A stretch of 64,000 bases of DNA, taken from positions 38,316,001 to 38,380,000 of the forward strand of contig OX597836.1 in the NCBI GenBank assembly GCA_951406725.2, given 5' to 3'. The stretch is from Octopus vulgaris. Lineage: Eukaryota. Under the pieces are notes generated by a model. It made no database searches and was not told where the DNA came from. It saw only the letters and a list, made by a program, of their open reading frames with translations. The number at the start of each line of letters is the position of its first letter. The first letter of the stretch is position 1. Made by a program: the position numbers and the translations under genes. Shown in pieces: positions 31,147 through 59,975 of this stretch.

Positions 31147-31471
31147 ATACATATGTATATATATATATATATATACATACATATGTATATATATATATAT
31201 ATACATATGTATATATATATATATACATACATATGTATATATATATATATACATACATATGTATATATATATATACATACATACATATGTATATATATAT
31301 ATATATACAAACATACATATATATATATACAAACATACATGTATATATATATATACATACATATGTATATATATATATATACAAACTTACATATGGATAT
31401 ATATATATACATACATACATATGTATATATATATATATACATACATATGTATATATATATATACATACATA
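31147..31471. repeat. (TA)n/TACATATGTA patterned array
   Basis: Read directly. Confidence 0.95.
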
Positions 31472-31556
31472 TGATTGATTGATTGATTCCAGTTCCAGCC
31501 TATGAGCTGTGGCCATGCTGGGGCACCGCCATTTGGTGTTGCTACTTGGTTTTACT

Positions 31557-34500
31557 TCATGGGGGCTTTCTAGCAACTGCTATTTGGTGCATGAGAGAGT
31601 TCGATGCAGCTGCCCTCATCTGCCCCTCCTGCCGTGAAGTTGGTTCATCTGGGACACCAGACAGGAAGAGATCCAGCTTCATTTTAAAGACATCTGTATC
31701 CACCCCATGCAGGTCTCTCAGGTTCTTCGGGAGGATATTGAAGAGCTGTGGGCCTCGGAAGCCCAGGCTATCACAGAATCTTGTCCTACATCTTGATGGC
31801 AGGTTTGGAGTCCTAGGCACCACGCAGTGGCGCCCAGTTCTGGCATTTGTGTAACTCTCGATGCCAAAGTTCAGGACACTTCCCTCCAGGATCTTCCAGA
31901 TGTATATTATGGCATATCTTTCCCGCCTACGCTCCAGGGAGTATAATTTTAATCTCTTGAGTCTTTCCCAGTAGCTTACATTCTGCATAGAGGCTATCTT
32001 CTTTGTGTAGCTTCGTTGGATCGCCTCAAGTTCTGTGATCAACTTGACACTGGATGGTGACCATAGCTGAGAGCAATAGTCAAAGTGGCTTAGGACAAGT
32101 GTCTTCCAGAGGACCATCATGGTTTCTTGTTCTCTTGTTCTAAAGGTTCTAAGAATCCAGCCAGCCAGCCGTCTACATTTCACTGTCAGTTTAGCAACAT
32201 GTACATGAAAGGTCGCGTCATCACTCATGTGAATACCCAGGTCACGCACTGATTGTGCCTCTGGGATTGCAATCCCTCCGGGTCCAGTGTATTCATTGGG
32301 TATTGCATTCAGTTTTGCATGCTGATAGTATAAAGCTTGAAACTTTCCAGCATTGAACTGCATGCTATTCTTTTCAGCCCACTTGTATATTTCGTCCAGC
32401 TCACATTGCAGGTTTTTAGTGTCCTCAGGGTTCTGTATTGCCTGTGAAACTTTTGTATCATCTGCATAACTTGTGATCGTGGATCTCTGCGTGGCTGAGG
32501 GCATGTCTGAGAGGGCCATTATGAACAGTAGTGGTCCCAAAACAGTGCCCTGTGGAACACCACTCATTATTTGCGTGTTAATGGAAGTGGCCCCATTGGC
32601 CACCACCACCTGACTTCTATTCTTCAGAAAGTCGTGAAGCCATTCTCCTAGTTTTCCAACTATGCCAAGATCACGCAGCCCGTGACACACCATTCCGTGA
32701 TCGACTCTATCGAAGGCCTTTGCGAAGTCGAGATATATGACTTCCACATTTGAGTGGTTGAGCAGTTGTTTCAGCACCCAGTCATAGTGCTGCAGGAGCT
32801 GAGTTAAGCAGCTTCTTCCTGGTCGGAAACCATGTTGGGTGTCAGGCAGCAAGTCATTTTCTTCAAGGAAGGTGATTAGTTTCCTTCTGACTATTCGTTC
32901 CATGACCTTGCTGATGTGTGAGGTCAGAGAGATAGGTCTGTAGTTCTTTGCCTCCGCTCTGCTACCTCCTTTATGAATAGGGCATATTTTACCTTCCTTC
33001 AGTCCCCTTGGAAGTTTGCCAGCTGCAAGGAAGCTCTGAAAGAGGGACTGCAGTGGTCTTGCTAAGACTCTCTTACATACTTTTAGGAGGATTGCCGGGA
33101 ATCCATCGGGGCCAGTAGCTGAGTCTATTTTCATTTCATCTATAGCCTTTATTACATCGTCTTCCTTTATCTCGATGTAACTTATCGTCGCCGCCTCTGA
33201 TTCTATATCTGCAGTGGTAAAGAAGTCAGTTGGATTGCTGATTTGGAAATGCCCAAGGGGTGGAGTGAAAACACTCTTGAATTGTTCATTCAGTATTTCA
33301 CTTACCCTCATTGGTTTTCCTGTGAGTGTGCCATCCTTTTCAAGGAGTGGCCCTATCCTACAGTGCACTGTAGCCGTTTCTTTGGCATACCTGTAGAAAG
33401 CTCTGGGGTTAGTTTTTATGTTGTCTATAGCCCAGGCTTCTTTGTCTGCTCTTTCCTTCTCATGGGAAAGTTGCAGACAATTTTCAATTTCCAACAGTTT
33501 TATTTTCAGGCGGGACTTTTCACTACTTTCAATTTGTTTGTTTAGGCGATTTGAAATTTTTGTACGCCGTCTCATTAAAATTTTCCTCTCTCTGGGGATT
33601 TTGTTCTTGTGTACAGTGGCCTTTCTCTCTGGGACACATTTGTAGCATATGGCTTGCATTACAGACATGAATTGTTGAAGTATCATGTCGATGTCCGGCG
33701 AGGAGAGACATTCAGGCCAGTTTTGTTTGAGGATCTCTTTCTCAATTTGTTTCCAGTTTGCCTTATTGAAGTTCAAGCTGGAAAGATTCTGAGGGTTTCT
33801 TGTAGGCTGCATGTCCGTGCTCTCTTTTGGCCCGTACATGGTCAGCTCTACCATGTTGTGATCCGAGAGTAGTGTCGGTGTCACTTTCACATTATGGATG
33901 AGATCCATATTATTTGTGAAGCAGAGATCCAGTGTGTTACCTGCTCTGGTTGGTTGCAGTATTACTTGCTCCATGTACAGGGTGTTGGTGAGGTTCAGGA
34001 GGGACCTCGCCTGTCCACGTTCACATCTTGTCATTCCTGGGAGAGAAAGGCCCTCGGGCCATCTGACATTCGGTAGATTGAAGTCTCCCATGAGAAGTAC
34101 ACTTATGTGTTGTTCTAATGTGGTTAGAACTTCTTCTATTTTTAAAAGGCAGTCCTCGAACTTGCCCATATGACTTGGGGCATCTGGAGGGCGATATGTA
34201 GCACACACAACTACATCAAGTTGCCTTATGTGTACAATTAGTGTGTCACACACCGAGTTTGAGTATGACAAAAGGACCTGGGGTGTGAGGTCCCCACGGA
34301 TGTACATAGCAACTCCTCCATGACTCCTTTCTTTCCTGTCGGTCCGTAGTACAACATACTGTGGTATGTGTAATTCCGCATCTGCTATGTCCGGTTTCAG
34401 ATGCGTTTCTGTGAGTGCTATGCATAAGGCTTGATTGCATGCGACAAAGTCTCTCAGGAACGGGACTTTTGTCCTGTTACTGTGTGTTAGTAAACCTCTG

Positions 34501-34601
34501 ATGTTCAGTAGGAGCATCGAGGTGAGGTGTATGCTGTTGCCGGCGTTGTCCACCCTGGGTCCATCTGCTGTGGCGGTCTTGTGAACTGTGGGCAGTTCCA
34601 T
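31557..34601 (-). CDS. Intact LINE ORF2: AP endonuclease plus reverse transcriptase (1,014 aa from ATG 34601)
   Basis: [69 protein letters not shown]; no stops. Confidence 0.95.
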
Positions 34602-58022: not shown

Positions 58023-59567
58023 TTTTTTTTTTCTAGTTTCAGCTCAGAGCTGCGGCCATGGTGATGCACCGCCGTTTTGTGCTACACTGTTATTATGACA
58101 AACCTCGTCTAATATGTGGCACTTGGTGAAGAATGGAGTTTGATACAGCTACTCTCATTTGCACCTCTTGCCGTGAGGTAAGTTCATCTGGGACTCTTGA
58201 CAGGAAGATGTCCAGCTTTGATTTAAAAACTGCTACATCTACTTTGTGCAATTCCTCAGACTCTTTGGGAGAATATTAAAAAGCTGTGGGCCCTTGAAAC
58301 CCAGGCTGCTGCAGAAGCTGGTCCTGAAGCGTGATGGCATTGCTGGGATCTTTGGCACTATGCAGTGTCGTCCCGTTCTAGCATTGGTGTAGCTTACAAT
58401 GCCAAAATTTGGCACAATTCCTTCCAGGATCTTCTAGACATATATCACTGCATACCTCTCCCTTTTTGTCTCCAGGGAGTAGAGTCTTAGCTGTTTCAAC
58501 CTTTCCCAGTAGCTGAGCTGTTGCAAAGAGACGATCTTCTTTGTGAATCTTCTCTGGATTGCTTCAAGATCCGCTGTTAATTTTACACTGGTGGGTGACC
58601 ATAGCTGTGAGCAGTAATCCAGGCGACTGAGGACCAATGTCCGCCAGAGGACCATCATGGTTTCCTTATCTCTGGTTCTGAATGTTCTTAGGATCCACCC
58701 GGCCAGTCGTCTGCACTTTGTCGCCATCCTGGTAATGTGCACTTGGAAAGAGGTATCATCACTCATGTCGATACCCAGGTCCCTCACAGACTTGAAATTC
58801 CCTGTGGACCGGTGTATCCTGTAAGTTTAATATTCAGTTTTGGATGCTGGTAGCGCAGGGCCTGGTATTTTTCAGCATTAAACTGCATATTATTATCCTC
58901 AGCCCATCTGTAGATTGAGTCCAACTCCTGCTGCAGGTGTGCAACATTGCTGGGGTTCTGTATTTTCTGCGAGACTTTCGTATCGTCTGCATAGCTGGCC
59001 AGAGTGGCTATCCAGGCATTTGAGGGCATATCTGAGAGGGCCACTATAAAAAGCAGTGGTCCCAAGACAGTGCCCTGTGGAACACCACTCACTATTTGTG
59101 TGTTCATAGAGGTGGCTCCATTAACCACTACTGCCTGACTTCTATCTTTCAGGAAGTCATGCAACCACACTCCAAGTTTTCCAGCTATGCCGAGGTCACG
59201 TAGTTTGTGGCATATCATACCATGATCCACCTTGTCAAAAGCTTTTGCAAAATCAAAGTAGATTACGTCCACATTTGATTTGTTGAGTAACTGCCTCAAC
59301 ACCCAGTCATAATGCTGTAAGCTCCTACCTGGTCGAAAACCATGCTGGGTATTACTCAGCAAGTTATTTTCCTCAAGGAATGCGATTAGTTTCTTTCTGA
59401 CTCTCCGTGTGAAGTCAGAGAGATAGGCCTATAGTTTTTGGCATCTGCTCTACTTTCCCCTTTATGTATTGAGCATATTATTCCCTCCTTCAGCTTTTTT
59501 GGCAGTTTGCCATTCGCAAGAAAGCTCTGGAAGAGAATCTTGAGGGGTTTTGCCAGGGCATGCTTAC
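58023..59567 (-). mobile_element. LINE family D (related to A), 5'-truncated, degenerate, poly(A) tail
   Basis: [27 protein letters not shown]; deletions and stops. Confidence 0.92.
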
Positions 59568-59670
59568 ACACACATATATATATATATATATATATATATA
59601 TATATATATATATATATATATATATATATATATATATATATATATATATATATATATATATATATATACA

Positions 59671-59975
59671 TATATGAATAAATGAAAGAATAGTGTCGAA
59701 CAAAGATGTTAACAAAATTCCTTTACTCTCGACACATGTTTCGAAGACAGCATGTTTTCATTCCTTCGGAATGAAAATTTTGTTAACATCTTCGTTCGAC
59801 TCCATTCTTTCATTTATTCATATACAACACATAAATTTCTACACATGAACCCGGAGTTTCTACCCTTGACAGGTCGATTCAACCGTGTTTTCTGACTTGA
59901 ATTTGCTACCCAGGTTTTGGTTAAATGAATTTTCCATAATGACGATAAACATAGGATAATTCATTCACCTACTTA
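59671..59975. mobile_element. Short inverted-repeat element with a one-sided extension (Penelope-like remnant) between (TA)n tracts
   Basis: 49-bp arms at 59671-59719 and 59776-59824; internal hairpin TTTTCATTCC-TTC-GGAATGAAAA; CGAAACATGT on the minus strand. Confidence 0.5.

Follow-up and report, generated by a model that had tools for sequence, protein, structure and literature searches.

Do certain LINE (long interspersed element) families of Octopus vulgaris insert preferentially into (TA)n microsatellites? This question is raised by about 28 kb of DNA in which (TA)n arrays alternate with LINE pieces (31147-59675 of the window, by which we mean the whole 64,000-nucleotide (nt) stretch analysed, positions 38316001-38380000 of contig OX597836.1 in a 2.8-Gb assembly). 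An earlier note had described eight LINE copies here, belonging to four families (A-D), each with (TA)n-based sequence at or within a few bases of both ends. Seven of them are solid, but the eighth, a C-like remnant, is weak and matches the 3' hairpin of family C over 24-25 nt only. At both ends of all eight segments, (TA)n-type sequence was indeed found directly or at most about 8 nt away. The microhomologies between tail and flank that the note had quoted are real as well: the junctions (marked by a slash) read GAGTA/TATAC in B2, AAAGT/ATAT in C2, and (AATC)nAAT/ATAT in A2. TA-like sequence makes up 31% of positions 25001-64000 compared to 1.9% of positions 1-25000. The left 23 kb of the window is occupied by a gene with VWA exons, presumably collagen VI-like or matrilin-like. 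As the note had claimed, families A-D are absent from it; the only element with a shared end found there is S1, a short interspersed element (SINE).

To find out whether this association extends beyond the window, flanks were scored across the genome by trimming the tail and looking for (TA)4 or (AT)4 within 20 nt. In a background of 20 arbitrary 10-kb stretches (398,800 positions), the (TA)4 rate was 4.6% of positions. For A, B, and D, the 30 best matches each were taken, with 40 scored of 1217, 2144, and 2832 candidates, respectively; for A and C, the first 30 exact-pattern matches by contig order were used (of 313 and 1601). Copies from the window itself and flanks masked by Ns were excluded from the counts. 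At the 3' junction, (TA)4 was present in 23/28 best matches and 18/29 pattern matches of A, 23/28 copies of B, 27/30 of C, and 26/29 of D (including two duplicated pairs). When A-D were pooled, 99 of the 115 junctions elsewhere in the genome carried it. In a whole-genome count for family C, 898 of 1184 forward-strand ends had TATATATA at most 20 nt from the anchor; the reverse-strand count was inflated by repeat matches and was not used. At the 5' junction, (TA)4 was counted in long copies of A (18/18; 20 fetched, two unscorable, overlapping with the best-match set), in pattern matches of A (12/17) and C (11/18), and in B copies fetched in longer stretches (12/20, one N-masked; 15/20 within 60 nt).

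Two other LINE families served as controls. One of them, family E, is likewise CR1-like and ends in an (ATT)n tail; it was found via a Pfam search for reverse transcriptase (RT). Its copies (L370-L381) are young and at least 4.7 kb long, and their first open reading frame (ORF1) is Cys-rich and Gln-rich and looks PHD-like by eye. Here, (TA)4 was seen at 3/23 3' junctions (of 24 loci, one lacked a 3' end) and 2/13 5' junctions; among long copies, which are about 99.5% alike, the counts were 3/12 (by eye) and 2/12 (one locus repeated). An RTE family with an (ATAG)n tail gave 8/30 at the 3' and 7/30 at the 5' side (four loci at one site; older copies). The differences between A-D and E (p = 1e-11) and between D and RTE (p = 1e-6) were pronounced. 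Since the controls too lie above background, TA arrays attract LINEs in general to some extent, and the bias of A-D is a lineage-specific one on top of this mild general pull. In their (TA)n content, the flanks of A-D far exceed the background and the two control families; this was the check that the note had put forward. We conclude that the preference of the CR1-like families A-D for ATAT/(TA)n is real, genome-wide, and lineage-specific; it very probably arises at insertion.

Next to be decided is whether the arrays were present before the LINEs or came with them. In 22 copies with variant arrays on both sides, the variant units of a copy's own two flanks were more alike (cosine 0.73) than those of different copies (0.50; 0/5000 shuffles), and the array lengths of the two flanks were correlated (rho 0.70, n = 67). 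Inside S1 lies a (TA)n(TG)n tract, 20-84 nt long in the 17 copies measured, into which LINEs insert: it is interrupted by a short A copy in one case and by an older C copy in another, and is whole in uninterrupted S1s. The shared variant units and the split S1 tracts indicate that the target existed first and that the arrays derive from the target site. It is hardly credible, then, that (TA)n is part of the element transcript, carried to new sites as a tail or a 3' transduction. In B, C, and D, TA is commoner at the 3' than at the 5' junction, which speaks for such an origin, but arrays occur at many different truncation points on the 5' side, variant units are common to both flanks and different between copies, and several copies have an array at the 5' side only.

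The bases that follow the tail indicate what is recognised. In family A, 27 of 29 pattern copies continue with ATAT or ATAC (two read in the AAT/ATAT phase), compared to a background of 3.3% for ATA[TC], or 10% if the tail gives the first A. Where (TA)4 was missing from the first 12 nt, ATA[TC] was still found in 12/14 A copies. This points to a nick at the T-A step in ATAT, for which long arrays would simply provide many sites. Target-site duplications are unreadable within arrays, and the handful of sites inspected outside arrays showed no evident ones.

The earlier note had offered three mechanisms, namely targeting by the apurinic/apyrimidinic endonuclease (APE) domain, annealing of the tail, or capture of LINE cDNA by fragile (TA)n cruciforms. 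The latter two have lost ground as sole causes, because the four tails differ (AATC in A, AAAAGAGT and ATCAAAGT in others, poly-A in D), because equally TA-like control tails are far less associated with TA, and because ATA[TC] is found without an array. The tail contributes 1-3 nt to the junction at most, and the control tails (ATT, ATAG) offer as much. Passive capture, in which broken cruciforms are repaired with LINE cDNA via this microhomology with no sequence-specific nick, could account for the unusually long arrays around young long A and B copies. Array edges that adjoin cut-off elements, as at fragile sites (a Tc1 ends at GGAGAT, see below), and the mild enrichment of E and RTE at TA fit it as well. 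However, E copies as young and long mostly avoid arrays (3/12), even sites of insufficient length for a cruciform have ATA[TC] after the A tail, and the 3' tails are intact, as with target-primed insertion. We therefore consider capture improbable.

Instead, the insertion of A-D is probably sequence-directed and target-primed, with ATAT/(TA)n as the site and, most likely, the elements' own APE endonuclease as the source of the nick. We propose APE as the target-setting component because in R1 and Tx1 elements it is the endonuclease that determines the target (PMC1919474, PMC4494074; here and below, statements on cited papers refer to the parts of them that were available). According to this model, the APE endonuclease of the element would nick ATAT or longer (TA)n. 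A nick at the T-A step would leave a T-ended primer that could pair with 1-3 nt of the RNA tail, and the RT would recognise the 3' double hairpin that the families share. Insertion would leave array on either side, so that later copies could stack into LINE-(TA)n islands like the 28-kb one; arrays might, with less certainty, also lengthen during or after the insertion of long copies.

Several observations weigh against this reading. At the 5' side, (TA)4 was found in just 5/14 D copies and in 2/6 B copies of the first short loci, and the A (best-match), B, and D samples consist of top-similarity matches and are thus non-random. Both controls lie above background (13-27%). When one sequence type in more than 20% of flanks is taken as the criterion for a target-specific LINE (PMC4494074), A-D clearly pass at 62-90%, and since the bar is lax, so does RTE at 27%. 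One family E copy also splits an S1 TA tract. S1 itself, which has about 55 nt of its 3' end in common with family B, is poorly associated with TA: by our rule, (TA)4 was present in 2/22 of its 3' flanks, with a few more by eye, which upholds the note's caveat that most copies of this SINE lie outside long microsatellites. Finally, the APE loop that precedes the catalytic LDL strand is equally short in family A and in the weakly biased E (PTRGDNTLDL), and no structural mark of specificity was seen.

The last two points would be accommodated if the target were set by the Myb/SANT-like domain of ORF1, or by a host factor, tethering the particle to TA repeats while a lax APE nicks nearby. The ORF1 of A, B, and C1 has a Myb/SANT-like region and a CCCH finger and that of E matched neither, the APE loop of A is no different from that of E, and a cis-acting ORF1 would fit the poor targeting of S1, which is mobilised in trans. 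On the other hand, the Myb matches are below the Pfam cut-offs and a single control ORF1 was compared; S1 copies are old (84-92% alike), so that their flanks may have decayed; and that ATA[TC] recurs to the base at isolated sites implicates the cutting step. Tethering is therefore a rather unlikely alternative to targeting by APE.

Array length, taken here as it stands in the assembly, adds a further aspect. At background (TA)4 starts, the median array is 39 nt long, and 0.7% reach at least 300 nt (n = 5070). Beside young long copies, arrays of at least 300 nt were found in 18/30 cases for A and 15/29 for B, compared to 2/30 for C and 1/30 for D. Among pattern copies of A, the 16 short ones (most about 60 nt) had a median array of 9 nt and the 13 long ones of 334 nt (p = 0.003). 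That long young copies lie in arrays far longer than the background suggests expansion at insertion. Long insertions may expand arrays, long arrays may favour long insertions, or arrays may shrink with age; we sought young long copies within S1 tracts as a test of array growth and found no suitable case. The increase of array length with copy length in family A could also mean that copies merely persist in TA-rich regions of low recombination, or that long-read assembly created the arrays. Both are very unlikely, as they leave the base-exact junction phase, the matched variant units, and the insertions into S1 tracts unexplained, and long E copies of the same assembly lack arrays. Many A copies of about 60 nt (L162-L187) have a common start at the foot of the 3' hairpin and lie in short TA tracts; they may reflect a stall of reverse transcription or a tiny non-autonomous element.

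At the left edge of the island, a Tc1-type DNA transposon, inserted at a TA of the array at 29463-30211, is cut off inside its transposase at GGAGAT by the next array. Thirteen of 14 other copies continue without TA at this point (the 14th was read in the wrong orientation). Simple nesting within this Tc1 does not explain the island, since the remainder of the transposon was found neither in the window nor in the 30 kb downstream or the 10 kb upstream. Extra A-D ends numbered 10 in 200 kb around 20 A copies compared to 2 in 200 kb of background, and just 2 in 160 kb around B copies. It is conceivable, if on balance doubtful, that (TA)n is both the target of an old CR1-group lineage with a Myb/SANT-CCCH ORF1 and lengthened by it at least tenfold at insertion, so that the elements would make their own landing sites and kilobase-long fragile arrays. 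In octopus genomes, this feedback would then give rise to LINE-(TA)n islands and promote local deletions. Elsewhere, a young A copy (L101:6911-9606, element-sense) has a 3' array that adjoins an older A copy in opposite orientation, truncated with 3 nt of microhomology. On contig C1 (a label distinct from LINE C1), 3' ends of family C recur every 1.5-3 kb at 119860454-119871485 and 113753993-113758428, possibly as tandem arrays.

The features of the window are listed in the table below. A 154-nt near-palindromic element resembling a miniature inverted-repeat transposable element (59671-59824) lies at the end of D's 5' array, and a 508-nt inverted-repeat element (15566-16073) lies within the VWA gene.

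Table. Features of the window (positions counted from its first nucleotide).
Feature	Position	Strand	Remarks
VWA gene	7452-23207	+	at least 4 VWA-domain exons
S1 SINE copies	3973-4350, 13331-13715, 19553-19930, 25678-26090, 63115-63503		
Tc1-type DNA transposon (PF01498)	30213-31146	+	about 94% to other genomic copies
Degenerate (TA)n array	31147..31472	.	A1 3' flank; far edge adjoins cut-off Tc1
LINE A1	31473..35095	-	5'-truncated inside ORF1; 3' hairpins and (AATC)n tail
LINE A1 ORF2	frame 31557-34676	-	open, 1039 codons, APE (33800-34598) and RT
LINE A1 ORF1 CCCH finger	34505-34972	-	
(TA)n array, 2.8 kb	35096..37921	.	A1 5' end to B1 3' end
LINE B1	37922..40206	-	5'-truncated; RT and 3' end, A-rich tail
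(TA)n array	40207..40692	.	B1 5' flank
(TA)n array	41213..41845	.	B2 5' flank
LINE B2	41847..43155	+	5'-truncated; (AAAAGAGT)n tail; 98% to B1
(TA)n array	43156..45551	.	B2 3' end to A2 3' end; contains the 141-nt remnant
Weak C-like remnant	43421..43561	-	141-nt island between arrays
LINE A2	45552..48871	-	5'-truncated; 99.6% to A1; one ORF2 frameshift
(TA)n array	48872..49331	.	A2 5' end to C1 3' end
LINE C1	49336..53945	-	older, near full length, broken ORFs
LINE C1 ORF1 pieces	53118-53519; 52312-53277		Myb/SANT-like; CCCH-like
(TA)n array with TACATATG variant units	53946..55149	.	C1 5' end to C2 5' end
LINE C2	55151..56811	+	young subfamily; 5'-truncated; (ATCAAAGT)n tail; 81% to C1
(TA)n array	56812..58022	.	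C2 3' end to D 3' end; opening variant units are those of the array at C2's other side
LINE D	58023..59565	-	5'-truncated; poly-A tail
(TG)n/(TA)n array	59566..59675	.	D 5' flank

Full-length elements of A and B measure about 5.5 and 5.4 kb, and the longest copies of both (L094 and L360) start directly after a TA array. ORF2 of A1 matches PF14529, PF03372, and PF00078 only, with APE before RT and nothing further; its structure model (predicted local distance difference test score 83) had L1 ORF2p as best match, at 17% identity. A search of the PDB with the APE domain alone gave no match. In the ORF1 of A, B, and C1, the N-terminal Myb/SANT-like region and the CCCH finger are weak matches, all below the Pfam cut-offs (Myb/SANT-like E-values: C1 1.9e-5, A 0.049, B 0.23); the ORF1 of E had no Pfam match, neither to these domains nor to any other. 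The 3' region predicted to form a double hairpin is common to A, B, C, D, and S1. An Rfam search gave no match. One protein cluster search gave no informative names and another only generic APE-RT clusters; the named homologues were from Argonauta and Octopus. Family A was detected in all four public sequencing runs aligned to A1; among the records searched, none of RNA was listed as carrying it. In one run (X1), a contig carries (AT)7 in place of 64 nt of family A at the joint 32032-32097.

To place the families, we compared their RT domains. Identity was 71-75% among A, B, and D, 42-45% to C, and 34-42% to family E. In a quick maximum-likelihood tree of 46 of the 108 rows of the RT set, with no named reference among the rows, A, B, and D formed a clade with an Argonauta protein at an SH-aLRT (Shimodaira-Hasegawa-like approximate likelihood ratio test) support of 100; this clade joined C and further relatives at 98, with E outside. 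In the RT trees, again without named references, A-D were distant from RTE and nearer to family E. We assume that A-D belong to the CR1 group, going by motifs such as LxYCxxxWxP and by the domain layout. Two traits of this group are present, an ORF2 that consists of an N-terminal APE and an RT with no other domain, and a predicted 3' stem-loop followed by a simple-repeat tail. LINEs of the R1 and Tx1 clades have a gag-like or L1-type ORF1 and a C-terminal CCHC motif; as no such domains were found and the identity to L1 ORF2p is 17%, this assignment was rejected, with no named R1 or Tx1 row in the tree. R4/Dong elements carry a restriction-like endonuclease after the RT, at the C-terminus, and one R4 element, Rex6, may target TA; this assignment was rejected too, since APE stands before the RT, at the N-terminus, in A-D. 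Zenon, which has no ORF1 and a poly-A tail (PMC13343379), was likewise rejected because A, B, and C have an ORF1 and repeat tails, and poly-A is found in D only. Relatives at 80 metagenome loci were mostly about 30% identical and fell outside the A-D clade; no TA flanks were seen at their contig ends, which does not address the trait in other hosts.

Compared to the microsatellite-targeting LINEs of the R1 and Tx1 clades, A-D differ in their self-complementary target, in a looser specificity (62-90%), in a CR1-like RT (by the motifs named above), and in an ORF1 with Myb-like and CCCH regions. What they share with Waldo (ACAY), Mino (AC; R1 clade), Kibi (TC), Koshi (TTC), and crocodilian Tx1 families is that APE-RT LINEs lie mostly in one microsatellite type (PMC3812793, PMC4494074). 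The targets listed for such LINEs are ACAY, AC, TC, TTC, and TAA, with TA given for a rice MITE only (PMC3812793). Dong, with its TAA target, resembles A-D in using an AT-rich microsatellite and in occurring in molluscs, and the same review places it among the APE types (PMC3812793); Dong-R4 is abundant in octopus (PMC13282606). CR1, Zenon, and L2 have in common with A-D an ORF2 with APE and RT, a short 3' untranslated region with a hairpin and a simple-repeat tail, frequent 5' truncation, and a SINE with the same 3' end, but a microsatellite target is not described for them in the available text (PMC13343379, PMC4120745). The ORF1 of A, B, and C1 matches none of the canonical CR1 types (PHD, esterase, RRM/CCHC, Tnp22), which sets these families apart from the canonical CR1 clade, and the source of this list mentions neither Myb nor CCCH (PMC4120745). 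Insertion into TA microsatellites and adjoining arrays of unrelated elements are also known from SaTar and TAFTA, which are plant Mutator-like DNA transposons whereas A-D are retrotransposons; in maize, the short TA targets of TAFTA are reported to expand on both sides (PMC5907723). For Octopus vulgaris, 13 recently active CR1 families have been reported in a paper whose available text mentions microsatellites once and no targeting (PMC13282606). The earlier note named no case of (TA)n targeting in the CR1/L2 group, and we found no description of it in the openly accessible literature that we searched, including the available parts of PMC10294476, PMC11481361, PMC9115989, PMC5035012, and PMC3747384; Repbase notes or subscription papers may record it.

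Sequence-specific APE LINEs have been described mainly in the R1 and Tx1 clades. In a CR1-like lineage whose thousands of copies are directed at (TA)n, target specificity would have arisen yet another time. With family E, the same genome provides a matched control that is equally young and weakly biased, and A1 in the window retains an intact ORF2. If arrays do grow at insertion, this would be a candidate source of the genome's very long TA arrays and of the deletions at their edges.

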